Position numbers and translations under genes: made by a program
In this document: in pieces, positions 166 to 34,955 of the stretch
Layout: the number at the start of each line of letters is the position of its first letter
Numbering within the stretch: position 1 is the stretch's first letter
Sequence record: NZ_CP110904.1
Direction: 5' to 3' (one strand)
Source of the DNA: a plasmid
Length of the DNA: 64,000 nt
Notes under the pieces: model-generated
The model's database searches: none
What the model was told of the DNA's origin: nothing
Seen by the model: only the letters and a program-made list of their open reading frames with translations

Positions 166-200
166 CAACAATACCAGGTTCGATTCATTTCCTAATAACC
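166..200 (-). promoter_or_regulatory. promoter module copy 0: GGTTATTAGG box, 14-nt spacer, TGGTATTGT extended -10
   Basis: In gene sense the sequence reads GGTTATTAGGaaatgaatcgaaccTGGTATTGT, about 45 nt upstream of the ATG at 117. It matches the same architecture as eight other copies. Confidence 0.5.
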
Positions 201-213
201 TGAGGCGAAAAAA

Positions 214-224
214 AAAGTAACTTT
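214..224. repeat. AAAGTAACTTT palindromic repeat, copy a
   Basis: Exact 11-bp palindrome, extended on the right by TTTTCCCGG. Intergenic. Confidence 0.6.
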
Positions 225-330
225 TTTTCCCGGGGTAATAGTACGTGATCCGTCCGTTTTAATTTTTCGCTAAGGAGGCCAAATTTAACTTTAGTGTGAA
301 ATCGGGTACCAAAAAGCCGGAATTTATCGA

Positions 331-341
331 AAAGTTACTTT
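331..341. repeat. AAAGTTACTTT palindromic repeat, copy b
   Basis: Exact 11-bp palindrome within GAAAAGTTACTTTTCCG. Intergenic. Confidence 0.6.
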
Positions 342-447
342 TCCGTCTGCAAGAACCCACAATAATGCAGATCCGTCAGCATGAAAGGTGTGACATGCGC
401 TGAAGGGAAGATGAGTAAGAGGGGAACTGCGGCGTCACACGGCATCT

Positions 448-458
448 AAAGTTACTTT
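448..458. repeat. AAAGTTACTTT palindromic repeat, copy c
   Basis: Exact palindrome. Intergenic. Confidence 0.6.
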
Positions 459-1022
459 TCCAAAATATGGAATGGCAATCTATCTATCGCTATAAAGGAA
501 TAACCGGGATCACTGTCGAACATCTCAACGCGGGGCAGGTAGAATGAGGGAATTAAAATCGGGCCAGGCTAAATCTGCCCGACCATCGGGAAAGGATACG
601 GCGGCATGGGTCTTACACGAGATAATGCGAATGTATGGTCTTTTCCGGTTGCGACTGTTGGGTTTCTTTCTCACCTGTGGCTAACCGTCGGTATTCGGCG
701 TCACAAAACATCCGTAAGTTGGTAAAGACTTTCTCCATAAACTCAGCGTGAGCAAACGACTCACCCGGGGATTGTGTACGTTCTTTCATACATTCCTTTT
801 TAATCATGTCGACACCTTCGGCACAGGTTGCAGCGGGTACGTCAGCGGGTCACCAGCTGGCGCTGATAATTCGTGAATCCGGAATAGTATTCTACCCTGT
901 TCGCATGCCACATCTGGTCGATAAGCGGGGAATTTCAATCCTATATTGAACCCAGCGACCACCGCAGGGAGAAGGGGCACATGACTTGTTTGTCCGTCCG
1001 GTCTCGGCATAAGGAGCGAGCC

Positions 1023-1277
1023 ATGAGCAAAGAGACTCTGTCACTGGCAACCCGTTACGCGGGCAACTCCTCTGTGATTTCGGAAATGCAGACAGCGCTG
1101 GACGTAATGCCGCTGGTGACGGAAGCCGTTCAGAGCGTGTGCGAACGGGTTGAATGTGAGCCCACTGAATTTCTGGACGCGATGGCGCTTGTAAAACGTT
1201 TCCTGCTGGCAAAACAAGATGAACTCCGTGCGGAAAGCGTTTCAATCCGCAAGCAGCTGGGTGAGATGGGGGAATAA
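1023..1277 (+). CDS. hypothetical small protein (85 aa from the internal ATG; the ORF track extends it to 981)
   Basis: RBS AAGGAG lies 7 nt before the ATG at 1023. First of six co-directional small genes. The stop overlaps the next start (TAATG). Confidence 0.5.
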   Translation: MSKETLSLATRYAGNSSVISEMQTALDVMPLVTEAVQSVCERVECEPTEFLDAMALVKRFLLAKQDELRAESVSIRKQLGEMGE

Positions 1278-1687
1278 TGATGATTAAGTCTACTATCAGC
1301 AACGATGCGCTTCGCACCCGTATTCAGGCGCTGCGTAAAACCAGTGCAAACACCCTTGTCAGCACGGCGAAATTCGACGCTGATGCGCTGGAGGACCTCC
1401 TGCGCCTGCGTACCGCAGTGAAGCTGAGACGAGTACACGTGGTCCAGAGTGGCACCTGCGACTGCGAGGAGCCCTGTGAATGCATGCCCGGGCTGTATGT
1501 AACCGTCGACTCCGGCGTGGGTCACGGCCAGGCGGTCTGGACTTACCGGGACGACGGAAAATCCGGTCTGGCGTACTGGTGCGAATTTATGGGACTCGCT
1601 CCATTCTGGGCCGAAGACCAGATGCATGCCGCCGAACTGCTTCGCGAGAAACTGGCCCCTGACCCGACGGTTTCAACAGCGACATGA
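1277..1687 (+). CDS. hypothetical protein with a Cys cluster (CDCEEPCEC)
   Basis: 136-aa ORF, GGGGGA RBS, translationally coupled to its neighbours. Confidence 0.5.
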   Translation: MMIKSTISNDALRTRIQALRKTSANTLVSTAKFDADALEDLLRLRTAVKLRRVHVVQSGTCDCEEPCECMPGLYVTVDSGVGHGQAVWTYRDDGKSGLAYWCEFMGLAPFWAEDQMHAAELLREKLAPDPTVSTAT

Positions 1688-1995
1688 CACGGCTGCACTC
1701 TCCCCCTGGGAGCCGCACTACGCGGCTCTGTTTGACCGAGAACACTATGACCGATAACAATGAAAAGCACGTTAACGCGATCCATATGAAGGGCAACGAT
1801 AACGCGAAAAAAGATGAGGCCGACAAAGCAACGGCACTGGTCCAGATGCGTATGACCCCGGAGAAAAAATCACGCTATGTCCGTGAGGCGAAGCGTAATG
1901 GCCTGACTATCTCGGCATGGATTCAGCGTCATATGGATCAGGTATGTGATGAGTCAGACGTAAACTATCTAAAGAAAAAGGCTGGCGAGCAATAG
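1684..1995 (+). CDS. small protein with a ribbon-helix-helix-like C-terminal half (MTPEKKSRYVREAKRNGLTISAWIQRHMD)
   Basis: ATGA overlap with the upstream stop. Paralogous to 3078-3440. An alternative start is at 1744. Confidence 0.5.
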   Translation: MTRLHSPPGSRTTRLCLTENTMTDNNEKHVNAIHMKGNDNAKKDEADKATALVQMRMTPEKKSRYVREAKRNGLTISAWIQRHMDQVCDESDVNYLKKKAGEQ

Positions 1996-2019
1996 GCGAC
2001 AGTCCACCAGCAGCAGCGA

Positions 2020-2030
2020 AAAGTTACTTT
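2020..2030. repeat. AAAGTTACTTT palindromic repeat, copy d
   Basis: Sits in GAAAAGTTACTTTCCCGGTTGCC. Intergenic, 90 nt upstream of the 2120 ATG. Confidence 0.6.
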
Positions 2031-2119
2031 CCCGGTTGCCTGAAAAGGACCGCATACTGCAAACACAAGGTGTGAACATCACACCCCCGCCCCGGCGGCT
2101 CCGGGCAAAGGAGTATCCA

Positions 2120-2452
2120 ATGAAACTTTCCCGCCAGACCACGAACGACACTGCTGTAATCGAAGGTACCCGCAGCCACTTCTGGGGTCGCTCGCTCTAC
2201 TTCATCATTGAGAATGCGCCCAGGGCACACCTCGTCGCTATTGATGAATTGCTGGATGCAGCGGGTTGGGAAAGCGATCACTGTCCAAACTACGAAGATG
2301 ACGATGCGTTTGGGCATGCCGGTTACAGCTGCGGGTACATGATTGAGATAGATGACGTGGCACGCTTCAGGGCTGACTATAAGCGCCTCAAAAAGCAGAT
2401 TGCCGCCCATATCGCCGCCCAGCGTAAAGCCGCAGCCAAACAGACGGCATGA
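2120..2452 (+). CDS. hypothetical acidic protein (110 aa)
   Basis: RBS AAGGAG lies 7 nt upstream of the ATG at 2120. The ORF track extends it to 2036. Confidence 0.5.
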   Translation: MKLSRQTTNDTAVIEGTRSHFWGRSLYFIIENAPRAHLVAIDELLDAAGWESDHCPNYEDDDAFGHAGYSCGYMIEIDDVARFRADYKRLKKQIAAHIAAQRKAAAKQTA

Positions 2453-2496
2453 ATTTTAATGCAAGCGTTGAGCCTGCATCTAAAAGGAACTGTGCA

Positions 2497-3066
2497 ATGA
2501 CCGAACAACTATCGGATGAAAAACTGCACCAGCTGGAAGGTGCTGCCGCAAATTACCGTACGACATACCAGGCGCACCTCGCTAATCCACTGGATGGCTC
2601 CGCAGTACAGGACTGGGATGAAGCGACCCGTCAACTAATGGCGGTCATCAATTACGATGAAGCCAATATTATCGCGCACCTACTGGCTCGCCGGGATGCA
2701 GATCTTGCCAGGCATGAAAGCGACATGACCCGGGCTATCGCAGCTTGGCAGACGGCATCCGTGAAGCTGTCCGAGCAGGCCAGCCAGCAACCAGAATTCC
2801 ACCTCCGCCGTGTTGGTGGGGACGAGGAGCTCTATGCCCCTTGTGGAAAAGATTATCCACGGGGAAGAGCGTACTACGTTAAGCCGGTAGTGAGCCTGGT
2901 TACCGTAAATTGTCCGCCCTGCGACCAATGCTTTGATTCTGCCGACGCCGCAACGGCCTACCGGGATGAGCAGTGGAGACATGTGCTGAGTGAAGCTGGT
3001 GTGCTGGTTACGCCGGGGGAGACAGCCCCGGTTCAGCCCACTGAAGACAAGCCGCTTTCCAAATAG
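2497..3066 (+). CDS. hypothetical protein (189 aa), C-terminal CPPCDQC motif
   Basis: RBS AAAAGGAA before the ATG at 2497. The ORF track gives 2449. Confidence 0.45.
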   Translation: MTEQLSDEKLHQLEGAAANYRTTYQAHLANPLDGSAVQDWDEATRQLMAVINYDEANIIAHLLARRDADLARHESDMTRAIAAWQTASVKLSEQASQQPEFHLRRVGGDEELYAPCGKDYPRGRAYYVKPVVSLVTVNCPPCDQCFDSADAATAYRDEQWRHVLSEAGVLVTPGETAPVQPTEDKPLSK

Positions 3067-10273: not shown

Positions 10274-10879
10274 TCAGTCAGTCTTCGAACCCGCGATCAG
10301 TGACAAACGGTGAGCACGAACACAACTGTGCATTAGGCTATCCGGGTAATGGGCGATTTTCTCCAGTTTCTCATCGAGGCGGGTATACGTCAGTCGCCTG
10401 ATTTTCGTTAGTTCCTCGTGAAGCCAGCGTTTGATAAAGGGATTGCTGGAAAGCAGCACCAAATCGGAGTCCTCCACTTCATCAAAAAGCCAGACGGGTT
10501 TTGCCGGAGTAAGACGATAGAGCCAGGGACGCGAATAGTCCCCCGTCGCAATCAGGAACCAGACAACAATGCCAAGTGCGAGCTCCATGACCAGCATCAG
10601 GGTAAACTGAATATCCCGGACGTCAGGCTCTCCGGTAAAGCTCATCAGTCGGTCGCCAGTTGCCACACGCTGGATAATACATACCAGCATCAGCAGAGCA
10701 AGCAAAAGCCCCATGAGCAGCCCGCCATTCACCTCAAAAGTAGCTTTCTGGACGCGATCAGGCGGTACCTGTCTACGGTAGCGGCCGACCACTTCGCCGA
10801 TCAGTTCCCTGATGGCCATGCGTTCTTCATCGACCGTTGTTGCGGTATATCCGGACGGGTCCGATTCAGTTTGGTTCAT
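10274..10879 (-). CDS. hypothetical membrane protein (two TM helices)
   Basis: Starts at MNQTESD with RBS GGAGAGGG. The ORF track gives 10894. Confidence 0.5.
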   Translation of the reverse strand: MNQTESDPSGYTATTVDEERMAIRELIGEVVGRYRRQVPPDRVQKATFEVNGGLLMGLLLALLMLVCIIQRVATGDRLMSFTGEPDVRDIQFTLMLVMELALGIVVWFLIATGDYSRPWLYRLTPAKPVWLFDEVEDSDLVLLSSNPFIKRWLHEELTKIRRLTYTRLDEKLEKIAHYPDSLMHSCVRAHRLSLIAGSKTD

Positions 10880-11115
10880 GTACCCTCTCCTCACTCTGAA
10901 AATTAATGGTCACAGACACGCTGATCATACCCGGTGAACGGGAGCTAGTTTGCGGGTTAAGGGCTCGAAAAAAACGGGATTAAAGAGGGAAATGACAGCA
11001 GGAAGGTGGGATGCAATGAGCTGTTTTGTTTCCCTACAGTTAAGTGGGGGGGGAAACTGCCATCACCGGAATACGCTGAGAACGGAACGGGCCAAACCGA
11101 TAAGATGGACGGGCG

Positions 11116-11397
11116 CTATTTTGATTCCAATATTCGGGATTTTTCTTCCCGCGTCGCCAAACGGGCACTTCCGGAACGGTCGCGGATGAGTAGCGGCTTA
11201 TCTTTTTTCCAGCTACTTATCGCCGTTTCCCCGAACCGACGCGGCGCATTGCGGTTCCAGCTGGCGATAACGTGGTTATCGTAAACCTCCTGAATAACGA
11301 CAGAATGAAGAGTTACTGTCTTAATGGTGGTATTGCCCATTTTGGTTCGGAAGAGTGACCAAACGGTCATCCCCGCCTCCAACTGACTGAGTTTCAT
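11116..11397 (-). CDS. hypothetical protein
   Basis: 93-aa ORF. Confidence 0.35.
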   Translation of the reverse strand: MKLSQLEAGMTVWSLFRTKMGNTTIKTVTLHSVVIQEVYDNHVIASWNRNAPRRFGETAISSWKKDKPLLIRDRSGSARLATREEKSRILESK

Positions 11398-11517
11398 CTT
11401 TGCTCCGGTGATATCGGGGAAGTCGACGTGGTGACGTATTTAATCATAATCACTCACAGCGGATAATGCCGCCAGGTAACAGGGTACTGTCAGCCCAGGC
11501 ATGAGCAGTCCTTACGG

Positions 11518-11694
11518 CTATCGTGATTCGGCCAGTGTGCGGGTAATAGTCGCACGCTGACGCTGACGCTCAGCCTTACGCTGGCTGCGGCGGTAAAGCG
11601 GTTTCGCAGCAGCATAACGGCAATCCTCCGGGTAGTACCAGCAGCAGCCACAGGGCTCAGGCTGCGGTTTTCCGGCAAGTCCAAATGGTTTCAT
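11518..11694 (-). CDS. small Cys/Arg-rich protein (58 aa)
   Basis: Translation MKPFGLAGKPQPEPCGCCWYYPEDCRYAAAKPLYRRSQRKAERQRQRATITRTLAESR. It is missing from the ORF track (below 60 aa), which instead lists an overlapping frame. Confidence 0.3.
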   Translation of the reverse strand: MKPFGLAGKPQPEPCGCCWYYPEDCRYAAAKPLYRRSQRKAERQRQRATITRTLAESR

Positions 11695-14067: not shown

Positions 14068-14071
14068 CTGA

Positions 14072-23942: not shown

Positions 23943-23987
23943 TGCATAACTCCTTATTTAATTAAGTGTGATTGCTGTCTGTGAATA

Positions 23988-24022
23988 GATAATATCAAAA
24001 CAGATACCCGCACCTAATAACC
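23988..24022 (-). promoter_or_regulatory. promoter module copy 2
   Basis: GGTTATTAGG, 16-nt spacer, TGATATTAT. Confidence 0.55.
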
Positions 24023-24171
24023 CGAAATGAAATATTTTCGAAGTTTTTATAGAGAAGACAGGCGCCATATTTATTAATCCAGCCATTATTTAGAGGGCGG
24101 CATTAAGTAATTATGCGGAAAAAATAAAAAACCGCCACAAGGGCGGCATTTATTAAATGGGAAAGATTCAG

Positions 24172-24435
24172 TTATAAGGTATGTGTCAGGGCGGAAACAA
24201 TGATCCGGTCTGGTAACAGTGATTGAAGGGACGCCGACGAAATGACAAGTGCCTTTTCAATGTGTGCCTCTCCGTCGGCGATATGTCGCCGGAATGCCGC
24301 TTCTGCTTCACCGGAGGAGTCGGCTTCAACCAGCATCACTTCTTCCTCATCATCAAACATCATGCGGCCTGAGATAATATACAGTCGGCTTAAGTCCGGG
24401 AGATTTACAGCGTTGCCCTGTTTGTTAATCATCAT
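24172..24435 (-). CDS. hypothetical acidic protein (88 aa)
   Basis: RBS GGAGAAAAA before the ATGATG start. Confidence 0.45.
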   Translation of the reverse strand: MMINKQGNAVNLPDLSRLYIISGRMMFDDEEEVMLVEADSSGEAEAAFRRHIADGEAHIEKALVISSASLQSLLPDRIIVSALTHTL

Positions 24436-24491
24436 TTTTCTCCGTCTGCAATTTTTAAATTTGTCAGTTCTGCTACGGGTAAAATACACCA

Positions 24492-24824
24492 TCAGCCCTG
24501 TAAACCCGGACAGGTATCAACGTAGCTCATCGGTTTGCCAATCGCGGCGCTTAGGCGAAGGATTTCGCCGATGGAGACGTACCGCAGCATTTCAGAACGC
24601 CCGTGTTTCTGGTATTCATCCACCGACATGGTGCGCCAGTCCTTGTGCGGTGTGTTTTTGCACAACTGCCAGTTGTCGACAGTGGTCGGGCGACGCAGGA
24701 CATACACACCCAGCGAAGGCGTGAGGCCTAAGCCAAATGACTGCTGCACCACAATACGCACTTCAGAGCCGTCGGGGCGTTTCAGTGTCTGAGTAATTTT
24801 AGTGATGAGCTGTTCGGATTCCAT
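24492..24824 (-). CDS. hypothetical protein (110 aa)
   Basis: Has a promoter-module copy upstream. Confidence 0.5.
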   Translation of the reverse strand: MESEQLITKITQTLKRPDGSEVRIVVQQSFGLGLTPSLGVYVLRRPTTVDNWQLCKNTPHKDWRTMSVDEYQKHGRSEMLRYVSIGEILRLSAAIGKPMSYVDTCPGLQG

Positions 24825-24863
24825 ACTATTAACCTCGACCGTCAGTTGGGTTGCTGTAGGGAT

Positions 24864-24896
24864 ATTTTAGCAAAGTCGGTTCACTGGCTAATAAGT
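24864..24896 (-). promoter_or_regulatory. promoter module copy 3
   Basis: CTTATTAGCC, 14-nt spacer, TGCTAAAAT. Confidence 0.5.
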
Positions 24897-25158
24897 ACAA
24901 AGCGAAATTTTTAAAAATAGAGGAATAAAACAGGAAGAGAACAAATCTGGAAACAGCAAAATCACATTATCCGATTGCAATTCATTTCACATTTGACATA
25001 TTCGGAATTAAGTACGCAACGAACCTGCATCGTCTGGTATAAAAGTATATTTCAAATATTCAGGTTATTATCTGAAGTAAAATACTCTCTGCCCCGGTTG
25101 CAATACCAGACGGAACACAAGACGTTATGAAGAGCCTGTCCCGGTTCAAAAGCTGCGG

Positions 25159-25389
25159 CTAATTTTTTCTGACCCACTTAACGAGAATGCCAGCCAGAGT
25201 CACAGTCAGCATCAATGCCCATACTGAAGAAATAAAGTTAAGCAATGGAATACGCTCAGAATAATCACAGGTACTGGATGGGTCACTGGCAAATTTACAG
25301 ATAAATTCGGGATCAAGCCCCCAGTAAACGAAAGAAAATAACACAACGAGCGATACACTGATTTTAAAGATTTTTTCGCTTGTCATCAT
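25159..25389 (-). CDS. small membrane protein (76 aa)
   Basis: Two TM helices. Confidence 0.45.
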   Translation of the reverse strand: MMTSEKIFKISVSLVVLFSFVYWGLDPEFICKFASDPSSTCDYSERIPLLNFISSVWALMLTVTLAGILVKWVRKN

Positions 25390-25426
25390 TTATCATCTCA
25401 ATCCAGGAGGTTATATAAACCTGAAA

Positions 25427-25870
25427 CTATTTCAGCCGTGTTTCGAACTGGTAAGGAATTTTCTGGACGGTTTTCATCAGATCAAAAATCGCCGGATGAG
25501 CCGGATTTAAAAGGTAGTTAAACTCCACCGGAGATAATGCACTGGGAATACGCAGGGCAACAGAAGAGCCACTTTCAGCCCAGTTATCGCCATACAGGGC
25601 AAGTTCTGCGGGCGCATCTTCACTTGCCCAGCCCGGCGGCAGCAGGTTCAAGTCAAAGGCCTGGATCTGGTCATCCGGGACATCAATGCTCAGCAGCGTG
25701 TAAGCGTCCAGAAGCTGCGGGGCATTGATATGCACCAGCGTCTCCAGCATGGTCAGAGAGGCCGTCTCGGACAGATAGACAAGTGCTGTGCCGACACTGT
25801 TCCAGCGGCCTCCCGCTTCTTTCGCACCTAATCCCGACCATGCAGTCGTAATATAGCGGGTCTTGGTCAT
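25427..25870 (-). CDS. RES-domain toxin
   Basis: GGRWN...TASLTMLETLVH...LLNPAHP signature of RES-domain toxins. An alternative GTG start at 25885 overlaps the antitoxin stop. Confidence 0.8.
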   Translation of the reverse strand: MTKTRYITTAWSGLGAKEAGGRWNSVGTALVYLSETASLTMLETLVHINAPQLLDAYTLLSIDVPDDQIQAFDLNLLPPGWASEDAPAELALYGDNWAESGSSVALRIPSALSPVEFNYLLNPAHPAIFDLMKTVQKIPYQFETRLK

Positions 25871-25881
25871 CCGATACAGGA

Positions 25882-26328
25882 TCACGAATAGACTCCGTGT
25901 TCAATACGGGTGATCAGGCGCATCACTTCGAGTGCGCCGGTTTCCGAAGAGACAACATCTGCCGGAGTCTTCCAGCTCAAGCCACGGTTTGGCTCGTTCA
26001 TCCATTTCTGTGCTGCCTCTTTGTCGCCTTCGAACAGCTCTACAGCCCGTTCAATGACGCGAATAATACGCACCAGACGTTCGCTCTGATCCGCAGTGAA
26101 ACGGGCTTTTACGCTGCGATTGAAGGTGGTGTTCGGAATGCCGGACATTTTGCGCAGTTCCGACGGCGTGATGTTCGCCCATTCAGAAATGGAATGAGCG
26201 ACTTTACCTTCCAGTCCGTGGCTAATTTTGTCCATCAGCGCAATGCCGTCATTATCCAGACCCACCACCTGCCATAAGCCGTGCGGGTTCATTTTGGATA
26301 AATCTGGAGAAAAAACTTTCATAGTCAT
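25882..26328 (-). CDS. Xre-like antitoxin with a DUF2384 (MbcA/ParS-type) C-terminal domain
   Basis: C-terminus WMNEPNRGLSWKTPADVVSSETGALEVMRLITRIEHGVYS. RBS GGGAGG before the ATG at 26328. Confidence 0.8.
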   Translation of the reverse strand: MTMKVFSPDLSKMNPHGLWQVVGLDNDGIALMDKISHGLEGKVAHSISEWANITPSELRKMSGIPNTTFNRSVKARFTADQSERLVRIIRVIERAVELFEGDKEAAQKWMNEPNRGLSWKTPADVVSSETGALEVMRLITRIEHGVYS

Positions 26329-26404
26329 AACCGACCCTCCCATTTGGGATGTCAATTATACCATATGGGTGACTACTGGCAATATTTTCACCTTTCTCAT
26401 AACG

Positions 26405-26713
26405 TCAGTTCGTCACCCGGCTGACTCTGGCATGGGCATTGCCCTGAATGTTCCAGTACAGCCCAGCCGGAAGCTCTGCGGCCCAGGTTGCCCCCCGTTC
26501 CGACATTTGTTCGGGCGTTTCCAGCCATCCACGCGGAATAGTACCGGTGGTGTCACCGATAACCCGCGAGACGCAGGCGGCAACGCGGACGCCGCCGGGG
26601 ACATCACAGCCGGATTCAACGATGTGCATCACTTCCATTAATGCGCCGTACGCTTCAACACGGTCGCCCTTTTGCAGTTCAATGGGGGAAACCTGTTCAG
26701 TCAAATTCTTCAT
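26405..26713 (-). CDS. hypothetical protein (102 aa)
   Basis: RBS GGGAG before the MKNLTEQ start. Confidence 0.45.
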   Translation of the reverse strand: MKNLTEQVSPIELQKGDRVEAYGALMEVMHIVESGCDVPGGVRVAACVSRVIGDTTGTIPRGWLETPEQMSERGATWAAELPAGLYWNIQGNAHARVSRVTN

Positions 26714-26888
26714 GCTCACACTCCCTTCAGTGATTAAAATTGTCGCCGTCGTTTTTAAGGCATCCGGGAGAAGAATCCTGGTGGCCATTACGCCGGTATG
26801 TTGCTGAATCATTTTCTGTCAGCGCCGTCGCCGCAGGACATCCCCGCTGGCGTCACTTCCGGCTGCTGGCCAGGCTAAACCGCCCAGC

Positions 26889-28158
26889 TCATCCCCCTTC
26901 CCGCAGTTCATCACGGTAAAGGGCAACCAGGTCATCGAGTATCGGGCTGCTCTGGTATCCCGGCATTTCTGTAAACAGGCTGCGCGAGATCCCGAGCCAT
27001 TCCATTATTTTGTCCGTTGCATACCAACGTCTGCCGAGCCGCTCAGCGGCAACCGGTACTTTGTGCAGACCGGCAAATGGCTCAACTACCAGATCACCAG
27101 GCCTGGTGAGGAACTCGATCAGGAATGCGGCGAGTCGAGTGGGTGACGTTGCACCGTGCAGCGGAAACCCCAGTTCGCGGGCGATGCGATGGCAGAGCCG
27201 CGTATCCGGGCAGGCATTGCCAAACATAAGCGTATTTTTGGGGATAGTCCCTTCTGTCTTATTGCCGAAGGCGCCATTTTTAAGCTGGTAAGCGCCATCC
27301 CCGTAAAATGTAGTGCGGTTTTCGCCGCCGGACGCCTGCAATTTCTGATGCTGCTCTGAATGAGGCTGGAGAACGCGCATGTTGTTCGAACGAACCTTTT
27401 GCGCGTCATTAGTAAACCACAGCACCGGCTCGTAAGACGAACAGAGCTGAACACGCTGTTTACACGCCCAGTGAGTCGGCGACGGGGGTTTCGCTCGGTT
27501 CACCCAGTTCAGTCTGTCCATCAGCTCAAGACCCAGCTTATCGCACAGCGCCAGTGTCAGTCTTTCCAGATACAGAGAGCGCGATGGCCTGCCTGGATTA
27601 AAGCTGTCCTGCGTCACATTGAGCGCCACGCTGCCCCCCGGCACGAGCTGCTTCACGATAGGCTCAAGAATCCGCAGCAGCCAGTCAATATACGCCTGCT
27701 CACCGCGTCCGCCGCCGTGCCCGTAATTTCGGGCATTACGCAGCAGGAACGGGGGCGACGTAAGGCAGAGATGGATTTGCTCATTGATGTTGCTGAAGAA
27801 CGCGTACGCATTCCCGAAGACCGATGCCCCGAGCGAAGTTGAGAAGCCAACGACGCACAGTTTGTCCCAGGACTCATGCAGCTTCTTGTCATTTTTGAAG
27901 GCATAGCGCCAGACGCCCCGCTTTTCCGGGACACGCTCGATCACCCCGGCCTGCCGCAGCGTCTGCTGATACCAGCGAACCTGATGCTTGACGCCGCTGG
28001 TTCGCATTTTGTCCGAGCCGAACGCCTTCATTTTCTGTAGTTCTGCATCCGACATCCCCGTTTCGCGTTGTACCTCGCGATACAGCTCTTCGTTCGTTAA
28101 CGGGGTGTCTGACGCGGCATAGATCCGCGCAATCAAATCGCTGTTAAGGTTGCTCATC
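26889..28158 (-). CDS. beta-class DNA methyltransferase (N6A/N4C, SPPF motif), orphan
   Basis: Motif IV TSPPF precedes the C-terminal motif I (VVEPFAGLH...YATD). The N-terminal roughly 90 aa form an extra domain. No adjacent nuclease gene. Confidence 0.8.
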
Positions 28159-28755
28159 AGCCATCCTTGAAAAACGGACCAGGGCGGCTTCACACTGCTC
28201 TTTACCCCACGAGTCCTGCCAGTCGCACAGGTGGAGATATTTGCGTTCGAGTGCTTCCATTTCATCGAGATTTGAACTCGATAATCCCGCCCAGACGTCG
28301 TGCCAGCACACATCGTAAGTAACGCCTGCCGGTGGGCAGTATTCCAGAGCATCCGCATGGATGATTTCAACACGGGGATCGTGGGCAAAGGCCTCGGCAA
28401 CCAGGTTAATCACATCCTGCGACTTCTCAATGACAGTCACGTTGTTAACTTCCGGCTTCTGAAGAATGGCGTGCAGCACCATCCCCAGCCCCAGTCCGTT
28501 GATCAGGACGTGCCCTGTCGCTCGCTTTATGAACTCCTGACAGAGTTGGATTTCGTATGGCAAATTGGTCATCACCACATTTCTGCCATTTGAAAGGCGG
28601 CGATAGTTACCGGGCTGTAAAACCGCGTCGATATCCTCCGTAGCGGCACGGAGGAAAAGGCTAACCGCCTTATCTTTGGAGATTTCGAAGCTGTCCAGTG
28701 TCCAGGCACCGGATGTTCCATCTTTAACAGGTAAATTAGAAAAGCAACTCTTCAT
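28144..28755 (-). CDS. small class-I SAM-dependent methyltransferase-like protein (203 aa), tandem paralog A
   Basis: Rossmann motif I VLINGLGLGMVLHA and post-I DPRVEIIHADALEY. Confidence 0.6.
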   Translation of the reverse strand: MKSCFSNLPVKDGTSGAWTLDSFEISKDKAVSLFLRAATEDIDAVLQPGNYRRLSNGRNVVMTNLPYEIQLCQEFIKRATGHVLINGLGLGMVLHAILQKPEVNNVTVIEKSQDVINLVAEAFAHDPRVEIIHADALEYCPPAGVTYDVCWHDVWAGLSSSNLDEMEALERKYLHLCDWQDSWGKEQCEAALVRFSRMADEQP

Positions 28756-28816
28756 CAGTCATCCTTAAAATGGATTCAGTTCAACGTAAGTGGGCGCAGG
28801 AAGACGGTGAAGCAGG

Positions 28817-29452
28817 TCACTTCCCTTTCTGCATCAGGGACTCCAGTGACGATTCCAGCGCCGCGAAACGAATCAGGGCAGCTTCACACTGCTCTTTACC
28901 CCACGAGTCCTGCCAGTCGCACAGGTGGAGATATTTGCGTTCGAGCGCTTCCATTTCATCAAGATTTGATCTCGAAAAATCTGGCCAGATATCATGCCAG
29001 CACACATTGAAGGTAACGCCTGCCGGTGGGCAGTATTTCAGAGCATCCGCAAGGATAATTTCAACGCGGGGATCGTGAGCAAATGCTTTGGAAACCAGGT
29101 TCATCACATCCTGAGACTTCTCAATGACGGTCACGTGGGTCACGTCAGGCTTCTGAAGAATGGCGTGCAGCACCATTCCCAGCCCCAGTCCGTTAATCAG
29201 GATGCGTCCAGTTGCTCGCTCAATGAAAGCTTCACAGGTACGGATCTCCATCGGCGTATTGGACATCACCACTTCGTTATCACAGGACAAACGCCGGTAG
29301 ACGCCTGCCGGGATATATTCATCCTGATCCTTTGTATATTCGGCGCGAAGCTTCAGGGTCTGCGCTTTTTCTGGCGTAATCACAAAGGAGTCCAGCGTCC
29401 AGTTACCGGATTTCCCGTTTTTCACCGGCAGCTCAGCAAATTTACTTTTCAT
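28817..29452 (-). CDS. small class-I SAM-dependent methyltransferase-like protein (211 aa), tandem paralog B
   Basis: About 70 percent identical to 28144-28755. Confidence 0.6.
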   Translation of the reverse strand: MKSKFAELPVKNGKSGNWTLDSFVITPEKAQTLKLRAEYTKDQDEYIPAGVYRRLSCDNEVVMSNTPMEIRTCEAFIERATGRILINGLGLGMVLHAILQKPDVTHVTVIEKSQDVMNLVSKAFAHDPRVEIILADALKYCPPAGVTFNVCWHDIWPDFSRSNLDEMEALERKYLHLCDWQDSWGKEQCEAALIRFAALESSLESLMQKGK

Positions 29453-29567
29453 ACTGATAACCTTAATTTCGAATCATTCTGTTGCCGGGAAATTACCACA
29501 TAACCCTCGGGCTGGGCAGGCAAGATCGCGTTACAACGGACGGCGGCTGACGCAACCGTCCACGGGT

Positions 29568-29825
29568 TCACAGGTAACGAAGTAGGATCTCCGCATCCTC
29601 CGGTGGCAGCTGTTGGCAGCTCTTCACTTGATAGAAGAATTCCCCGCCAAGATCATACACTCCGCCGTCTTCAAAACTCAGTGCTTCGACCTCGTCGCGA
29701 CACTCATTCAGTAATGCCGTCTGGCTGGCGTTTGCCTCAGTATCGCTGGCGACAAGCTTCACGCTGGAATGCTCATACTCGCCATTCCGGCATACAATTT
29801 TGACAATGAAGTTTTTTTCAGGCAT
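29568..29825 (-). CDS. hypothetical acidic protein (85 aa)
   Basis: RBS GGGAGG 6 nt before the ATG at 29825. Confidence 0.45.
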   Translation of the reverse strand: MPEKNFIVKIVCRNGEYEHSSVKLVASDTEANASQTALLNECRDEVEALSFEDGGVYDLGGEFFYQVKSCQQLPPEDAEILLRYL

Positions 29826-29888
29826 CTGCGCCTCCCGGCTGGTTAGGGGTTTATTCAGCGTTGCCCCGGCGTCCGGGGCAAGACTCAA

Positions 29889-30323
29889 TCAACCCTTGAT
29901 GAAACTCTGGCCGAAAGAAGGATTGGCTTTAAACTGGTGCTCCTTTATGATTTTTTTCATCATCTGAGAGCATTTCTTGATCGATTTGGTGCTGGCATCC
30001 GTGACTTCAGCCATCTTGCGGATAAAGCGATTCACCTGATACTGCGCCTCAGCATCTTGGCTGAGGGCTTCACTGTGGATGCGGTCTTCATGCTGCGCAA
30101 TCAACAGCACATAGCAGCGGAGACCTGTGGCGGTGCTCACGCGCTGGCTGATCGTGATTTCCGCCGAGCGGGTAGACTGGACGACAGAGAGAGAGACTCT
30201 CGATAATTCGCCGTCCCGGAAAATAGCCGGAGTAAGACCATTAATATCCTCGCGGGAATAATTCAGAGAGTCCAGAATGGAAAATAAATCACAGGTGGTA
30301 AAATCGAATTCCTGAATGCTCAT
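29889..30323 (-). CDS. hypothetical protein (144 aa)
   Basis: Has a promoter-module copy upstream. Confidence 0.5.
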   Translation of the reverse strand: MSIQEFDFTTCDLFSILDSLNYSREDINGLTPAIFRDGELSRVSLSVVQSTRSAEITISQRVSTATGLRCYVLLIAQHEDRIHSEALSQDAEAQYQVNRFIRKMAEVTDASTKSIKKCSQMMKKIIKEHQFKANPSFGQSFIKG

Positions 30324-30367
30324 ATCGCCTCCGACGCTTCATTATTTGTTGGCATTGCCTGTAGATA

Positions 30368-30400
30368 TATAATACCAGGTTGGGTTCAAAACCTAATAAC
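30368..30400 (-). promoter_or_regulatory. promoter module copy 4
   Basis: GGTTATTAGG, 14-nt spacer, TGGTATTAT. Confidence 0.55.
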
Positions 30401-30458
30401 CCGGAAGAGAATATTTTGAAGAAAATCTCAGGCATCCATGCCGTGAATTAAGCTGGCA

Positions 30459-30836
30459 CTATTCTGAAATAATATCACCAAGGCTGGTGGTAAATTCTCT
30501 TTTGACGGATTCAGTAAACGGCACTCGCTCAATATATTTATAATTCGTGGCATAGGTGTTGGTGTCTAAAGTCCGGGAGATCTCATCATCAATCGGGTCT
30601 TCAAACATATCAATGCGCACATCGATATGCTGCGTGCCTTCTGCGGTAGGATGTGACAGGCTGCACGACACTTCGATATAGCGATCTTTCTGCTCCGCGA
30701 CAAACGTCCAGAAACCTGCATTAAAGTCGGTTGATGCACCGTGACGTTTAAATACAACATCAGATACGGAATAACCGACAGCATTAAGAAGGGAAATGAA
30801 ATTAAGCTGACTGGAAATGATATCTAATTTATTCAT
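30459..30836 (-). CDS. hypothetical acidic protein (125 aa)
   Basis: Has a promoter-module copy upstream. Confidence 0.5.
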   Translation of the reverse strand: MNKLDIISSQLNFISLLNAVGYSVSDVVFKRHGASTDFNAGFWTFVAEQKDRYIEVSCSLSHPTAEGTQHIDVRIDMFEDPIDDEISRTLDTNTYATNYKYIERVPFTESVKREFTTSLGDIISE

Positions 30837-30850
30837 GATGTCTCCTGTTG

Positions 30851-30893
30851 GTATGTGGCAATTATACCAGGACGCGCTCGACGGCTAATAACC
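30851..30893 (-). promoter_or_regulatory. promoter module copy 5
   Basis: GGTTATTAGCC, 14-nt spacer, TGGTATAAT. Confidence 0.55.
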
Positions 30894-31029
30894 TGCGGCA
30901 AAATTTTTCCGAATAGTTGATGATGTGATTGATAGCTTTAAAAATTAGGAGGATTGTTTATAAGAAGGAATATAACCAGAGGATTTGAAATTTAATACAC
31001 CATGCCGACTGACCACGTCTAATTTTTCA

Positions 31030-31040
31030 AAAGTTACTTT
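31030..31040. repeat. AAAGTTACTTT palindromic repeat, copy h
   Basis: Sits in CAAAAGTTACTTTTCCCGGCTGCC, nearly identical to the extended form of copy d. Confidence 0.6.
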
Positions 31041-31226
31041 TCCCGGCTGCCCTGATCCCACGTCGCTAAGACCCGGTATACTCAGGCATTCTGCCCGGAA
31101 GGCAATTGGCTTCGGTGATCGGGTATTAAAATAGGGCCAGTCTGTTTTTCTGCGAGTTTCGCGCTCTGTTGATGGCGTGAAATCACCTTTTCCGGATGCC
31201 CTCCCTGGCTGTCCGGTGCGCTGGCG

Positions 31227-32408
31227 CTACGCCCAGCGGTATGGGGTAAAATAGGTCTCGTTAACTTCAAGAAATTCGGTCAGGGAATTCATCGCTCTCG
31301 TGTCGTATGCAGTCACAATAAAACGGTAACCGTCCACCGTTTCGATGTAACTGATCCCCCGTGGCGTGCTGCTGGCATTCACCACTTCCGCCGTCATCAT
31401 AAACTGGCCTTGCGGGAATTCCTGTGACAGGTAGATAAATCCGGTGGTTGCTGATGACGGGGTGGCATTCATCAGCACACCGTTAAATTGCTGGCCGTGT
31501 CGCGCCGGGATCAATGTGCTGTCCGCCGTCGCCTGATTCAGCAGCTGCCGGATCAGGGTTTCCTCTTTATATGAGCTGTAAGCGCGGACATCGTCTTCAG
31601 CCCCGGAGCGTGAGCAAACACCTACATGTGCAAGCCGCCGGTATTCGTTACGCATGTAGGCATGACAGGATGCACCCGCTCGCCCCTGAAGGGTGACACC
31701 AAAATCTTCACACAGCATCAGAACCTGGCGCAGATTGTTGTCATATACCGTCGCAGTAAGGGCCAGGTTATAACTGACGAATGTCAGCTCAAAAACCCGT
31801 GTATGCATGTCACTAACGTGTGCCTCCATCCGGATCAGCGGCTTTTCAGTCAGCGGATATGGAGTGCCGTTCACGCAGTACGGGGTAACGCCGCTAAAAC
31901 ACTCGCCGATCACGCTAGCAATGACTACGTCGGCGTCAATGACAGCCGGTGCCGGGACATAGATCTGAAACTGTCCTTCCGTGCCAGATTGGGTAAGGAC
32001 GGGGAACAAACGCGGGGAATTAAGCTGCTCAAGGTCAGCATTGATCAGTTCTGTCCAGCTGGGTTTCCCGGTGGGTGCATCGAGGCGCAGGCCCAGGTTA
32101 TCGCAGAAGTCGACGATCTGCCGGGAGTGTTCCACCATCACTGCCCCGGAGAGAGTCAGACCGTGCGTCGTCATCTTCAGCTCACTCGTCCGTGTCTGGG
32201 TATTCTGGGACCAGGGCTGTAAAGAAAGTGTCGTCCGGCTTAGTGAAGGTATAATTGTTTCATTCAGTGGGTCGATCAGTTGGCAATGCGCATTCAGCCG
32301 GGGGACAAGGGCATCAAATATGAAGCTTGCCTGTTGTTTAGTGCTGGCCTGAATATAAAACATCGCATCCGTGCCTGCATCCCTGGATAAAATACCGAAA
32401 AGTTTCAT
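31227..32408 (-). CDS. hypothetical 393-aa protein with an internal two-fold repeat, in the HigA position
   Basis: Lies 8 bp downstream of the HigB-like gene. No HTH detected. Halves similar (DFCDNLGLRLDAPTG vs LCEDFGVTLQGRAG). Confidence 0.5.
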   Translation of the reverse strand: MKLFGILSRDAGTDAMFYIQASTKQQASFIFDALVPRLNAHCQLIDPLNETIIPSLSRTTLSLQPWSQNTQTRTSELKMTTHGLTLSGAVMVEHSRQIVDFCDNLGLRLDAPTGKPSWTELINADLEQLNSPRLFPVLTQSGTEGQFQIYVPAPAVIDADVVIASVIGECFSGVTPYCVNGTPYPLTEKPLIRMEAHVSDMHTRVFELTFVSYNLALTATVYDNNLRQVLMLCEDFGVTLQGRAGASCHAYMRNEYRRLAHVGVCSRSGAEDDVRAYSSYKEETLIRQLLNQATADSTLIPARHGQQFNGVLMNATPSSATTGFIYLSQEFPQGQFMMTAEVVNASSTPRGISYIETVDGYRFIVTAYDTRAMNSLTEFLEVNETYFTPYRWA

Positions 32409-32416
32409 TTTTTACC

Positions 32417-32713
32417 TTAATGGATTAGCGATTTATAATCATGCGCCGACAGGTGAACGTTATGTACGCCATCATTCCACACAAAGAATAACCGATATTT
32501 TGAATTAACTCGAATGGAAGAGTACCGGTTTGCGGTCATCCTTAAGCGTTCGTAACGCAAACTACTTGATAACAATTCGCGTTCGTTTTTTACATTATTT
32601 AACGTTTTCAGTCTGCATGAAATCGCATTTAACAGATCAGCAGGAATACCTGCTGTGGACTTTCCATTACGGAAAAAGCTTTCCAGCCGTCTGTCTTTAA
32701 ATGAATGGATCAT
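32417..32713 (-). CDS. HigB-like (RelE/ParE superfamily, killer-protein type) toxin
   Basis: 98 aa, alignable end to end with Rts1 HigB (MI.SFK..L...F..G....G.PA ... DG....V.L.DYH). Confidence 0.65.
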   Translation of the reverse strand: MIHSFKDRRLESFFRNGKSTAGIPADLLNAISCRLKTLNNVKNERELLSSSLRYERLRMTANRYSSIRVNSKYRLFFVWNDGVHNVHLSAHDYKSLIH

Positions 32714-32776
32714 ATCTTCCTCCGTAATGGAATGAGTAAAATTAAATAAGAATTATAAAAGCCTGAAGCTGATTTA

Positions 32777-33244
32777 TTAAATCCCGAGAATTCTGGCTGC
32801 GACCGTTAGTTGTTTATCACTTAATGGATATTTCCGTGATAACGTCGATTTCAGACTGTTCAGAAAGCTGTTCTCCCCGTCTTGCTGTGTGATGGCGTCA
32901 ACCAGTTCCTGATTGCTCTTACACCACAGATTGAACGCGGAAGTCTTTGATTGTACAGCACGCTGACGCACTACTGCCTGAGCTGCTGAAATCTTGCGTG
33001 CCGCTTCCGGGTATGTGCGATATAACGCGGAAAGGGTGTAACATGTACGGGTTGTGACCAGGCTATAGCCCGTACCATTACATGCCATGCAGCGGCTCCT
33101 ATAAAAGTGTTTACGCTCACCACGGCCTTTGCATTTATTGCAAGTGACCCGATAAATATATTCCCCGGTGCCTTTTACTGAATCAATACACTGAATCTTA
33201 GCGTTGTCGATTTCAATTCCGCTCTGGTCAAAGTATTTATCCAT
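32777..33244 (-). CDS. DnaJ-type zinc-finger (CxxCxGxG ... CxxCNGTG) protein, 155 aa
   Basis: Contains CNKCKGRGE...CMACNGTG. Homologous N-terminal module to 60250-60969. Confidence 0.55.
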   Translation of the reverse strand: MDKYFDQSGIEIDNAKIQCIDSVKGTGEYIYRVTCNKCKGRGERKHFYRSRCMACNGTGYSLVTTRTCYTLSALYRTYPEAARKISAAQAVVRQRAVQSKTSAFNLWCKSNQELVDAITQQDGENSFLNSLKSTLSRKYPLSDKQLTVAARILGI

Positions 33245-33264
33245 TTTTGATTCCTCAGGTTTGG

Positions 33265-33306
33265 TCTGAAGTAATCATGACAGATTGGTCTCGCTGGCTA
33301 ATAACC
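33265..33306 (-). promoter_or_regulatory. promoter module copy 6
   Basis: GGTTATTAGCC box. Weaker -10 (TGTCATGAT). Confidence 0.4.
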
Positions 33307-33916
33307 TGAATGAAAGATTTTTAAAAATAATTTTGCAGCACTGCTAAAGGCAGTTTATATATGCAGGATTCAATTTTACTGAGAAATATTTTCGGAAGTA
33401 TCTGTTTACAAATACCAAAAAAAAAACCAATGAGGTCTTAATTACATCCTTAATGGGCATGGTTATTTTACATCCTTATGAGTAGCAATGCTTATGTGTT
33501 AATTTAACAACACCATATGCGTCTAAGGAACTTCCTATCCGCCTTCATGAAGCTTTTTTCCGGTTACCAGTAAGGGCCATATGACTGGCAAATATTCCGC
33601 TCGCGGTATACCGAAGTTCCGAGAGGATGGCGAAACGGCAGAATGCTACAGTAAAGGAGAAATGTTAGCTATAAAACGGTGGCACAGGGTCGGGATACTC
33701 GCGGGCTGAAATGGCAGATTCAGTTTGTCTTCCGGCTGTAGCGTCCCTTCCCCACTCACAAGACCCATCTTAACCGAAGGTGTCGCAGCCTTTCTCCCAG
33801 ACGCTCGACGATTCCTGGGTTTAAGGTCACGAAACAATGGTCATGCACACCGGCTTTCAACTGGCACAAATGTGATTACGAAACACTCGTTAATGCCCTC
33901 CCGGTAAGCCTTTAGA

Positions 33917-33927
33917 AAAGTTACTTT
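33917..33927. repeat. AAAGTTACTTT palindromic repeat, copy i
   Basis: Intergenic. Confidence 0.6.
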
Positions 33928-34058
33928 TCTAAGATTAAAATGGACTATTTTAATTATAGTTTGGATATGAATTTTTAAAAAAATAAATGCCTTCAACTTA
34001 TTTGGAAAATAAGCCGGAATGTTAGAGTGTTCTCATTCAAAAAAGAGGAGAACCAACC

Positions 34059-34835
34059 ATGCCAAAATGTCTATTACCTGCCGAGCTTGCGGAAATTGTC
34101 TGTGGATTACTGGTGCAACCCACATTAATGAATGAATTAAAAACACCGGAGTCGCATAAAGCATTTATGCAGGATATCGCTGAGCTGGTGGCGAAACATT
34201 GCGGAGGAGAGATTGACGGTGTGATCATGCCGGTGGATCGCGATGAATCAAGCCAGGCCGATTATCTGACCTCTCCGGATGTAACCCCTTATCTCGTCGT
34301 ATCTCCCGGCGCGGACATGCACTCCCTCACCGATAATGTCTGGCGTCACCATGCCCGAGATGGCTGGCTTGACCATATCAAAGGCAGCGACGAAGAAAGC
34401 CCTGATGAATTGCCGACGCATAAAGAGTGCTCAGTTCGCCGCTACGCCCTCCAGCGGATGCTCCTTCAGACACAAACCAACCATGCTAATCTTCCCTCGC
34501 AGGTGGTACGAATGCGTGATTACTGCAACCTCGACGACGAACAGCCCGGGTCTTCAGCAGAGTTTATCGTTACTATGGCGCTCGGCGGTCATGCCCAGCT
34601 GGCAGTTCAGGATGTGGAATCACGCCTGGTAATGGCCCTGACGTTGTTAATTGAAAATGGTGTTCCCTCGGTCCATGTAAACGCGGGTGACACTGACCCT
34701 TCAGTTCTGCACGTCCAGGCTGCTCACGGCGGCATGGTCCTTTCAACTGACTCCCTGAATCATAAATTCGGTATTTCGCCGCCTGACAGGTATACCAACG
34801 GTCGCCCTGGCTTATTAGTTAAAGCAGCCTCCTGA
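34059..34835 (+). CDS. hypothetical protein (258 aa), tandem paralog 1
   Basis: RBS AGGAG. About 30 percent identical to 34984-35760 (shared HCGG and HxxAAHxGxVL motifs). Confidence 0.55.
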   Translation: MPKCLLPAELAEIVCGLLVQPTLMNELKTPESHKAFMQDIAELVAKHCGGEIDGVIMPVDRDESSQADYLTSPDVTPYLVVSPGADMHSLTDNVWRHHARDGWLDHIKGSDEESPDELPTHKECSVRRYALQRMLLQTQTNHANLPSQVVRMRDYCNLDDEQPGSSAEFIVTMALGGHAQLAVQDVESRLVMALTLLIENGVPSVHVNAGDTDPSVLHVQAAHGGMVLSTDSLNHKFGISPPDRYTNGRPGLLVKAAS

Positions 34836-34922
34836 TTCATTAATTACAAATCTGTCCTTTTTTAATTCCATAATTCGCTCTTTATTTAAAGGGCGAATAT
34901 ATTTTTAAAAAACCTCACCCCA

Positions 34923-34955
34923 GGTTATTAGCCAGCAAACCGAAACTGGTAGAAT
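34923..34955 (+). promoter_or_regulatory. promoter module copy 7 (the only plus-strand copy)
   Basis: GGTTATTAGCC, 14-nt spacer, TGGTAGAAT. Confidence 0.55.

Follow-up and report, generated by a model that had tools for sequence, protein, structure and literature searches.

A recurrent promoter-like module with a conserved 9-bp box in a gene block beside the relaxase operon of an IncHI plasmid

What reads a short sequence box that recurs, at an almost fixed distance from a good extended -10 element, upstream of gene after gene in one part of a plasmid, and what would such a common signal be good for? The question arises from a stretch of 64,000 nt of the plasmid record NZ_CP110904.1 (hereafter the window), in which a preliminary description had recognised nine near-identical promoter modules, each composed of a strictly conserved 9-bp box and an extended -10 element. 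Our analysis leads to the view that these modules are very probably co-regulated promoters, and we consider it likely, with somewhat less assurance, that a dedicated trans-acting factor reads the box. The genes concerned lie in a single block beside the relaxase operon, and this block is probably turned on as a whole upon arrival of the plasmid in a new cell.

At all nine places listed in the preliminary description the module is indeed present in gene sense. The strictness of its conservation did not hold up: the exact box GGTTATTAG is found in only six of the nine, and the remaining three deviate by 1-2 mismatches, namely GGTTATTTG at 12119, GGTTATTCG at 16706 and ACTTATTAG at 24896. The count was likewise too low, as the window contains 11 modules, including an exact box at 14434-14442 on the minus strand and a degenerate copy at 33996-34028 on the plus strand that had been missed. 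The sequence GGTTATTAGS occurs seven times in the window versus 0.12 expected, a number reached in none of 100 shuffles, and the composite pattern TTATTWG-N15/16-TGnTAnnnT occurs nine times versus 0.00 expected. We pieced together the plasmid pP10159-4 (NZ_MF072964.1; 228,709 bp, typed as IncHI1B / MOBH / MPF_F) from six annotated stretches. The whole window corresponds to record positions 165913-228709 of this plasmid with 99.99-100% identity, and the sole large difference is a 1,197-bp element of the IS3 family (orfA/orfB) inserted at window 61171-62367. Window positions 23000-35500 are 100% identical to both pP10159-4 and CP078021.1, two Citrobacter freundii plasmids, and 99.7% identical to a family of Enterobacteriaceae plasmids of 220-380 kb. 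Nine exact boxes are present in the 228.7-kb plasmid, two of them (record positions 163289 and 164151) a short way outside the left end of the window, and together with four variants they amount to 13 clear modules; one possible outlier at record 93019 (AGTTATTAG plus TGTATAAT) lies beside an insertion sequence. The motif search over the whole plasmid and related replicons that had been proposed at the outset thus yields 13 modules here, as well as orthologues in IncHI1, IncHI2 and R27. A search of a phage collection gave no match, and when viral contigs were scanned for the composite pattern, the loci listed were single, scattered matches as by chance. Searching the literature with the box string retrieved unrelated primer matches only, and a search of the IncHI literature found no description of the motif.

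The anatomy of the module is best seen in an alignment of 28 sites from this plasmid, pHCM1 (IncHI1) and one IncHI2 plasmid, numbered from the first G of the box. An upstream tract with TTT at -21 to -19, AAAWA at -15 to -11 and TT at -9 and -8 is followed by CA at -2 and -1, by the box itself (1-9, GGTTATTAG) with 1.2-1.8 bits per position, by C or G at position 10, by a variable spacer (11-24) with a weak GA..C bias and by the TGnTATAAT-like extended -10 element (25-33). The information per box position equals or exceeds that of the -10 element. Position 40, the putative start, is an A in 23 of the 28 sites and is preceded by a pyrimidine; if transcription starts there, the box occupies -39 to -31 and the AT-rich tract approximately -60 to -47. 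UP elements have a consensus of the AAAWWTWTTTT type and form an A/T-rich tract at about -60 to -40. The AT-rich element noticed earlier upstream of most copies is borne out, with its TTT, AAAWA, TT pattern in the 28 sites from three lineages, and in some copies it falls on the T-run of a preceding terminator. Of the 28 sites, 24 show an offset of 27 between box and -10, three an offset of 28 and one an offset of 30; the two elements are 18 bp, rarely 19, apart, and the sequence between them varies. Among the 11 window modules, ten possess the TG of the extended -10 (the copy at 16706 has CG) and ten the TAnnnT hexamer (the copy at 33306 has CATGAT). At the sequence level the promoter reading is supported: an extended -10, a UP-like tract, an A seven nt on, and then a ribosome-binding site and ATG. 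The distance to the start codon, which had been given as 40-60 nt, measures 24-51 nt from the end of the -10.

A canonical -35 hexamer is absent, and for this reason a generic two-hexamer sigma-70 scan of 23900-35100 returned none of the seven modules located there. The best -35 reading, TTAGCC at 16-bp spacing, matches TTGACA at three of six positions, below the at least four of six, 16-18 bp from the -10, of a canonical element, and the modules do have the features of an extended -10 sigma-70 promoter (TG at -15/-14, one base before the hexamer, A2 and T6). Instead of a -35 hexamer, the place is taken by the box, which is asymmetric; about half of the copies are at best a partial palindrome GGnTAnTAnCC. 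A dedicated factor or an unusual -35 recognition, as suggested in the preliminary description, is a fair reading by inference, given a box at the -35 place with a match to TTGACA of at most 3/6, and nine contiguous conserved bases that exceed what region 4 of sigma-70 would read. With this anatomy the modules are probably active as promoters.

The modules are not confined to a single plasmid lineage but form a trait of the IncHI family; neither this nor their restriction to one block beside the relaxase operon had been recognised in the preliminary description. Homologous blocks exist in IncHI1 (~83% identity) and IncHI2 (~68%), and pHCM1, R27 and an IncHI2 plasmid carry modules at the corresponding, orthologous places. 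When 14 orthologous pairs are compared with the window copy, identity amounts to 94% in the box and 91% in the extended -10, versus 64% in the spacer, 66% downstream of the -10, 55% in the 22 bp upstream of the box and 36% further upstream. Even deviant copies are kept, such as ACTTATTAG in the orthologue of the copy at 24896 and CATGAT or CATTAT as -10 in the orthologues of the copy at 33306. Judged from these alignments, box and -10 form a clear phylogenetic footprint, in which the box is selected as strongly as the -10 itself and over a longer stretch than sigma region 4 would touch.

This pattern bears on the idea that the motif was left behind by a dispersed repeat or marks a recombination junction, similar to the promoter-stem-loop cassettes of T4-type phages, and that it was kept by duplication and shuffling of cassettes rather than by regulation. 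In its favour, some units are tandem paralogues with modules of their own (such as the 258-aa pair at 34059 and 34984, and the 144-aa/125-aa pair at 30323 and 30836); moreover, IncHI1 is devoid of a segment at ~24.9-31.0 kb of the window that runs from module to module. However, neither the flanks nor the spacers of paralogous copies are homologous, and the common stretch of only ~9 + 9 bases is too short for homologous recombination. Orthologues keep box and -10 while their surroundings drift, and every copy is correctly placed upstream of a gene and co-oriented with it. We regard an origin of the pattern in a dispersed repeat or a recombination junction as highly improbable.

A different picture is found in the more distant Klebsiella pneumoniae IncHI1B/FIB lineage, which has no GGTTATTAG box. 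Its homologous genes (DUF957, ParB-like and others) carry another common module instead, GGGGTTGAY-N16-TATCCTGG. In the K. pneumoniae plasmid pKH1-1 it takes the form GGGGTTGAY-N16-(TG)nTATCCTGG upstream of the genes starting at 7937, 10113, 18461 and 19799, has a canonical -35, and its -10 is overlapped by the Dcm-type site CCTGG in all four copies. Because homologous genes carry different promoter signatures according to lineage, the sequences suggest that recognition of the modules is lineage-specific rather than host-wide. The distinction matters for the possibility that no plasmid factor is involved at all. The box would then be a promoter element in its own right, or it would be bound by a host protein shared by the Enterobacteriaceae, and it would be kept because it sets promoter strength or physiological control. 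The module does act as a unit with its -10, as the fixed spacing indicates, TTAG(C/G)N at 16-bp spacing matches TTGACA at 2-3 of six positions, and no plasmid regulator can be named. In addition, CAGGTTATTAGCCAG around the box agrees at 10 of 15 positions with the degenerate Lrp consensus, a comparison of our own and not a test. Against this stand the replacement of the box in K. pneumoniae, the restriction of the exact box to one block of the plasmid, and the 94% conservation of nine contiguous bases across lineages of ~68-83% identity, which exceeds a reading by sigma region 4. A purely intrinsic or host-borne explanation appears to us improbable.

Which genes, then, are marked by the box? 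All nine exact boxes are confined to record 163.3-200.8 kb, a single 38-kb block by the MOBH relaxase operon, and each of them stands in promoter geometry and is directed at a gene. Modules head most transcription units of this ~40-kb block, which starts after the mobI-mobH(relaxase)-traD operon and the genes following it (record 150.7-160.7 kb). Transcription of nearly all block genes runs toward that operon, with the exception of a pair of 258-aa paralogues, diverging from the rest at window 33.3-34.0 kb. In the intergenic regions checked upstream of tra, partition and mobI/relaxase genes there is no box-like site. Within the block some units do without the box, namely the Xre/RES pair and two paralogous units with another common module. 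According to annotation and Pfam, the block encodes a ParB-N + HTH_ParB protein, DUF905, DUF957, DUF3085 and DUF6012 proteins, HNH endonucleases, a 793-aa protein with a PAPS-reductase domain, a 422-aa DNA methyltransferase and two small methyltransferase-like paralogues, Xre/RES and RelE/ParE toxin-antitoxin elements, two DnaJ-type zinc-finger proteins, and many orphan genes. Leading regions are known to hold methyltransferases, toxin-antitoxin systems and anti-defence genes on one strand (PMC11541004), and by analogy the gene content of the block resembles these published regions. As the block adjoins mobI and the relaxase gene, and from the orientation of its genes, we infer that it enters the recipient first, i.e. 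that it constitutes the leading region.

How the box would act in such a block can be outlined as follows. The modules would be a family of sigma-70-type promoters, whose extended -10 and UP-like tract let the host RNA polymerase fire without any plasmid protein, and expression would start once the incoming strand becomes double-stranded. The box, at the seat of sigma region 4, would serve as operator for a sequence-specific protein that the plasmid encodes, most likely a repressor; this protein would build up and shut the block down, resulting in a burst of 'establishment' genes in new transconjugants at a low cost later. The TT at -34/-33 may double as a residual -35, which would explain the fixed spacing, and a dual role of this kind, with TT as residual -35 and the whole box as operator, would reconcile the evidence for a repressor with that for a promoter element. 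A repressor is favoured because an extended -10 with an AT-rich tract should work with the host polymerase alone, because an entering plasmid carries no regulators, and because the regulators found in R388 without exception repress strong promoters; five maintenance promoters of that plasmid are under the control of ArdK, and expression overshoots after transfer (PMC3937220). For the complete model, with strong promoters, the box as operator of a plasmid-encoded repressor and a burst after transfer, we estimate a probability of roughly 0.45.

Some information on expression in established cells can be drawn from the one relevant data set that we found, the microarray tables of R27, wild type versus htdA mutant (PMC7366339, Tables S3/S4). 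R-numbers were mapped to our genes by counting open reading frames (ORFs) from the anchors IS10 (R0076 and R0085), hok (R0101) and the H operon (R0115-R0122), and since an error of one or two positions is possible, we give this evidence little weight. R0062-R0066 and R0069, which by position count represent the units of modules 9, 10 and 11 and the first gene of module 5, remain at background (11-118 units) in the htdA mutant as in the wild type, at either temperature (PMC7366339). R0067 and R0071-R0075, further genes of the block, increase 5-15 fold at 25 °C when htdA is mutated (PMC7366339), as do 139 of the 181 expressed R27 genes (PMC7366339). Some box promoters thus seem to be silent in established cells despite good -10 elements, which agrees with a repressor as well as with the lack of an activator.

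Several observations weigh against the repressor model and the leading-region setting in which we place it. R0104, R0098 and R0089, corresponding to the ParB-like gene and the units of modules 2 and 3, are well expressed in the steady state (1,000-3,000 units; PMC7366339), and repression, if any, is therefore not uniform. An asymmetric box with fixed orientation and spacing to the -10 looks more like a promoter element or a class II activator site than an operator. The modules at 33996 and 34923 face away from the relaxase side, and a literature search did not find the transfer polarity of the IncHI oriT. Searches of the proteins of the block and the adjacent backbone in Pfam, NCBIfam, PHROGs and PDB sequences detected as DNA-binding domain only the ParB-HTH, and the ParB-like protein of module 1 makes a weak candidate for the box binder, as it has another likely site of its own (see below).

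Alternatively, the plasmid could encode an activator that binds the box, or a factor that directs the host RNA polymerase to it, working as a class II activator over the -35 or by sigma appropriation in the manner of MotA/AsiA of T4. The modules would then be a plasmid-private promoter class expressed as a timed set. The absence of a canonical -35 and the silence of several putative box-driven R27 ORFs in established cells, likewise in the htdA mutant, agree with this, as does the geometry of an asymmetric box in one orientation at 18 (rarely 19) bp from the -10 despite fully diverged spacers, which is expected if one complex reads both box and -10. AcaCD in MOBH plasmids provides a precedent, with a common motif as class 2 activator site (PMC4207636). 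On the other hand, a near-consensus extended -10 with an AT-rich upstream tract should need no help, and early genes would be delayed if no activator is present on entry. A Pfam search of ~39 full-length proteins, which are part of the plasmid's set, yielded no activator, MotA, AsiA or sigma family, and the box is lacking from the tra, partition and mobI/relaxase intergenic regions checked. An activator is in our opinion unlikely, yet it is the alternative that we take most seriously.

Several candidates for the factor were considered. The tra operons of IncHI plasmids are activated by TrhR/TrhY (PMC7366339), but TrhR, TrhY and HtdA are unlikely to be the box factor because no box precedes the tra, partition and mobI/relaxase genes in the intergenic regions checked, and, for HtdA, also because in R27 it affects genes across the whole plasmid (139 of the 181 expressed; PMC7366339). 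The product of the ParB-like gene at module 1 was set aside because all lineages, the box-less one of K. pneumoniae included, have clusters of a different sequence, a palindrome, upstream of this gene. This palindrome, AAAGTWACTTT (core AAAAGTWACTTTT), is present in three copies, 117 bp apart, directly upstream of module 1 (window 214, 331 and 448), and five copies precede the homologous ParB-like gene, whose product is 45% identical, in the K. pneumoniae lineage. We counted 14 exact copies in the window (besides those three at 2020, 14689, 19951, 21232, 31030, 33917, 40262, 42486, 51904, 53530 and 59904) and 44 in the plasmid, versus 0.16 expected from composition. They are spread over the tra regions and the block, also inside coding sequences, and are sparse in the resistance region; the palindrome is likewise frequent in pHCM1 (IncHI1), IncHI2, R27 and the K. 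pneumoniae lineage. A literature search found no description of it in a plasmid context. It is likely the site set of a protein of the KorB/ParB type, and a connection between palindrome, ParB-like protein and box promoters is a conjecture. Besides the partition ParB of Par1 the plasmid encodes three paralogues with ParB-HTH, at window 1-116 (401 aa), 56806-57960 (384 aa) and 62385-63458 (357 aa). With the ParB-like protein as query, tblastn finds one match fewer in the K. pneumoniae lineage than in the box-bearing lineages, and a search of species genomes for its relatives returned five loci. One may go further and imagine a plasmid protein that takes the -35 position and steers the polymerase to GGTTATTAG promoters by class II activation or sigma appropriation, perhaps together with a KorB-like ParB clamp at the 44 AAAGTWACTTT sites, by which IncHI plasmids would run a phage-like timed programme of ~45 establishment genes; we consider this scenario quite improbable.

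Plasmid-wide regulons that reuse one operator or activator box are already well known, as in KorA/KorB, ArdK and AcaCD. Our case differs in the IncHI family, in the sequence of the box and in its location in the place of the -35, and we found no earlier description of it. In the IncP-1 plasmid RK2, short operators of KorA/KorB are likewise reused at many promoters of one plasmid, and KorB, a member of the ParB family, binds about a dozen palindromic sites across RK2 and works with a second, promoter-proximal repressor. Here we find a ParB-like gene behind module 1 and a separate palindrome with 44 copies plasmid-wide, whereas the box is not palindromic and shows no match to OA or OB, and no KorA homologue was detected among the proteins searched. 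ArdK of the IncW plasmid R388 also uses one regulator site at several maintenance and establishment promoters, ahead of small, poorly characterised genes mixed with functions of the anti-restriction type. CUP repeats of the IncN plasmid pKM101, ~100 bp long, are related to the ArdK promoters. A common module upstream of several leading or establishment genes, the hallmark of ArdK and CUP, is found here in 13 copies, with a leading position that would follow from gene order and orientation. The modules differ in consisting of a 9-bp asymmetric box at -35 plus a -10, in unrelated sequences and in belonging to another plasmid family (IncHI, MOBH). Strong promoters under a plasmid repressor, with an overshoot after transfer, are documented for R388 (PMC3937220), whereas repression is a proposal here.

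AcaCD of IncA/C and SetCD of SXT/R391 come from elements with the same relaxase family as here, MOBH, and their motif is likewise common to many promoters, where it adjoins the -35 on its upstream side or overlaps it and works as a class 2 activator site (PMC4207636). However, AcaCD and SetCD boxes, which go with FlhDC-like activators, drive transfer genes, whereas no box was seen here in the tra, partition and mobI-relaxase intergenic regions checked, and the promoters of the present plasmid differ by their strong extended -10 elements. The middle promoters of phage T4 have a parallel geometry: they too carry a conserved 9-bp box in place of the -35, and its distance to a good TAnnnT -10 is fixed. 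Their MotA box, TTTGCTTTA, is centred at -30 and serves sigma appropriation by MotA/AsiA. In contrast, GGTTATTAG is centred at -35, and Pfam detected neither a MotA nor an AsiA domain among the ~39 full-length proteins scanned. Frpo elements are long imperfect hairpins active in single-stranded DNA. The modules, unlike them, would be ordinary duplex promoters without an inverted partner: no inverted copy of the box occurs near any module, and exact boxes on opposite strands are more than 1.6 kb from their nearest neighbour. Common to the modules and to Frpo/ssi sites would be a probable location in the leading region and a role in early expression after transfer (PMC11541004).

These relationships are of interest beyond the single plasmid. 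IncHI plasmids are major resistance vectors, such as R27 and pHCM1 in typhoid and IncHI2 plasmids with mcr-1 and extended-spectrum beta-lactamase genes, and the block of unstudied genes makes up about one fifth of the IncHI backbone. The shared box predicts which genes of this block are co-expressed, can serve as a bait for the regulator, and opens a way to test whether the block genes are expressed early, as an 'establishment' programme, and act in anti-defence. Such a switch, specific to the plasmid, could become a target against the establishment of IncHI plasmids in new hosts.

The individual modules of the window are numbered here from left to right; modules 1 to 9 are on the minus strand, modules 10 and 11 on the plus strand. 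Module 1 (168-222; exact box GGTTATTAG at 192-200, extended -10 TGGTATTGT at 168-176) heads the gene of the 401-aa ParB-N + HTH_ParB protein, of which the window contains the 5' end (1-116, minus strand, with the ATG at 116 and the remainder off the left window end). Module 2 (12087-12141; box variant GGTTATTTG at 12111-12119, extended -10 TGATATAAT) precedes a 117-aa ORF and three small ORFs (10274-12058, minus strand, a putative extent). The previously overlooked module 3 (14410-14464; exact box at 14434-14442, extended -10 TGTTATATT) is followed by DUF957 and DUF3085 genes (13576-14383, minus strand), and module 4 (16674-16728; box variant GGTTATTCG at 16698-16706, with TATAAT after CG rather than TG) by ORFs of 78 aa, basic, and 82 aa (16113-16631, minus strand). 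An AlphaFold prediction from the single sequence of the 78-aa basic protein reached a mean pLDDT (the confidence score of the program) of 61, too low for use. Module 5 (23989-24044; exact box at 24014-24022, extended -10 TGATATTAT), with a spacer one base longer, heads ORFs of 268 aa (acidic), 148 aa and 793 aa, the last with the PAPS-reductase domain (20084-23942, minus strand, likewise a putative extent). Behind module 6 (24864-24918; box variant ACTTATTAG at 24888-24896, a variant kept in IncHI1, extended -10 TGCTAAAAT) lie ORFs of 110 and 87 aa (24172-24824, minus strand), a unit that ends at a terminator-like hairpin at 24131-24148.

Module 7 (30369-30423; exact box at 30393-30401, extended -10 TGGTATTAT) is followed on the minus strand at 25427-30323, in one unit or several, by ORFs of 144 and 106 aa, two methyltransferase-like paralogues, the 422-aa DNA methyltransferase and finally the Xre/RES toxin-antitoxin pair, which has a canonical promoter of its own (TTGCCA-N16-TATAAT). 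The two methyltransferase-like ORFs, in tandem at 28144-28755 and 28817-29452, share a stretch of ~409 bp of 86%-identical DNA. Module 8 (30861-30915; exact box at 30885-30893, extended -10 TGGTATAAT) precedes an acidic 125-aa ORF (30459-30836, minus strand). Module 9 (33274-33328; exact box at 33298-33306, extended -10 TGTCATGAT with the weak hexamer CATGAT, a weak -10 kept in all three lineages) heads a unit at 31227-33244 (minus strand) of a 155-aa zinc-finger protein (CXXCXGXG), a RelE/ParE-like toxin and a 393-aa ORF. The 155-aa protein (32777-33244) has two CXXCXGXG motifs and a 239-aa paralogue near the right end of the window; its weak match to a Q-like antiterminator in PHROGs (E = 5e-4) was judged an artefact of the zinc ribbon. 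Module 10 (33974-34028; degenerate box ACTTATTTG at 33996-34004, extended -10 TGTTAGAGT) heads a 258-aa ORF (34059-34835), and module 11 (34901-34955; exact box at 34923-34931, extended -10 TGGTAGAAT), immediately downstream of a terminator-like hairpin at 34873-34898, heads an acidic 258-aa ORF (34984-35760). The two 258-aa acidic proteins are tandem paralogues, with one box module each. Terminator-like hairpins thus stand ahead of at least two modules (24131-24148 and 34873-34898), and the modules after them therefore head separate units.

The picture of small acidic ORFs given in the preliminary description fits about half of the genes, because the first downstream ORFs span 78-425 aa with isoelectric points of 4.1-9.5, and most modules head multi-gene units. 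A Dcm-type CCTGG site includes the TG of the extended -10 in three modules (168-176, 30369-30377 and 30861-30869), and a cytosine methyltransferase is also encoded elsewhere on the plasmid. A second promoter-like pair, AAAATAGSCCCGTTARCG ... TGTGGTGTAATGCT, is present on the minus strand at 13039-13089 and 19996-20046. It precedes paralogous genes, a 67/164-aa ORF followed by 74-aa paralogues, and one of its two copies contains the palindrome CCGTTAACGG.

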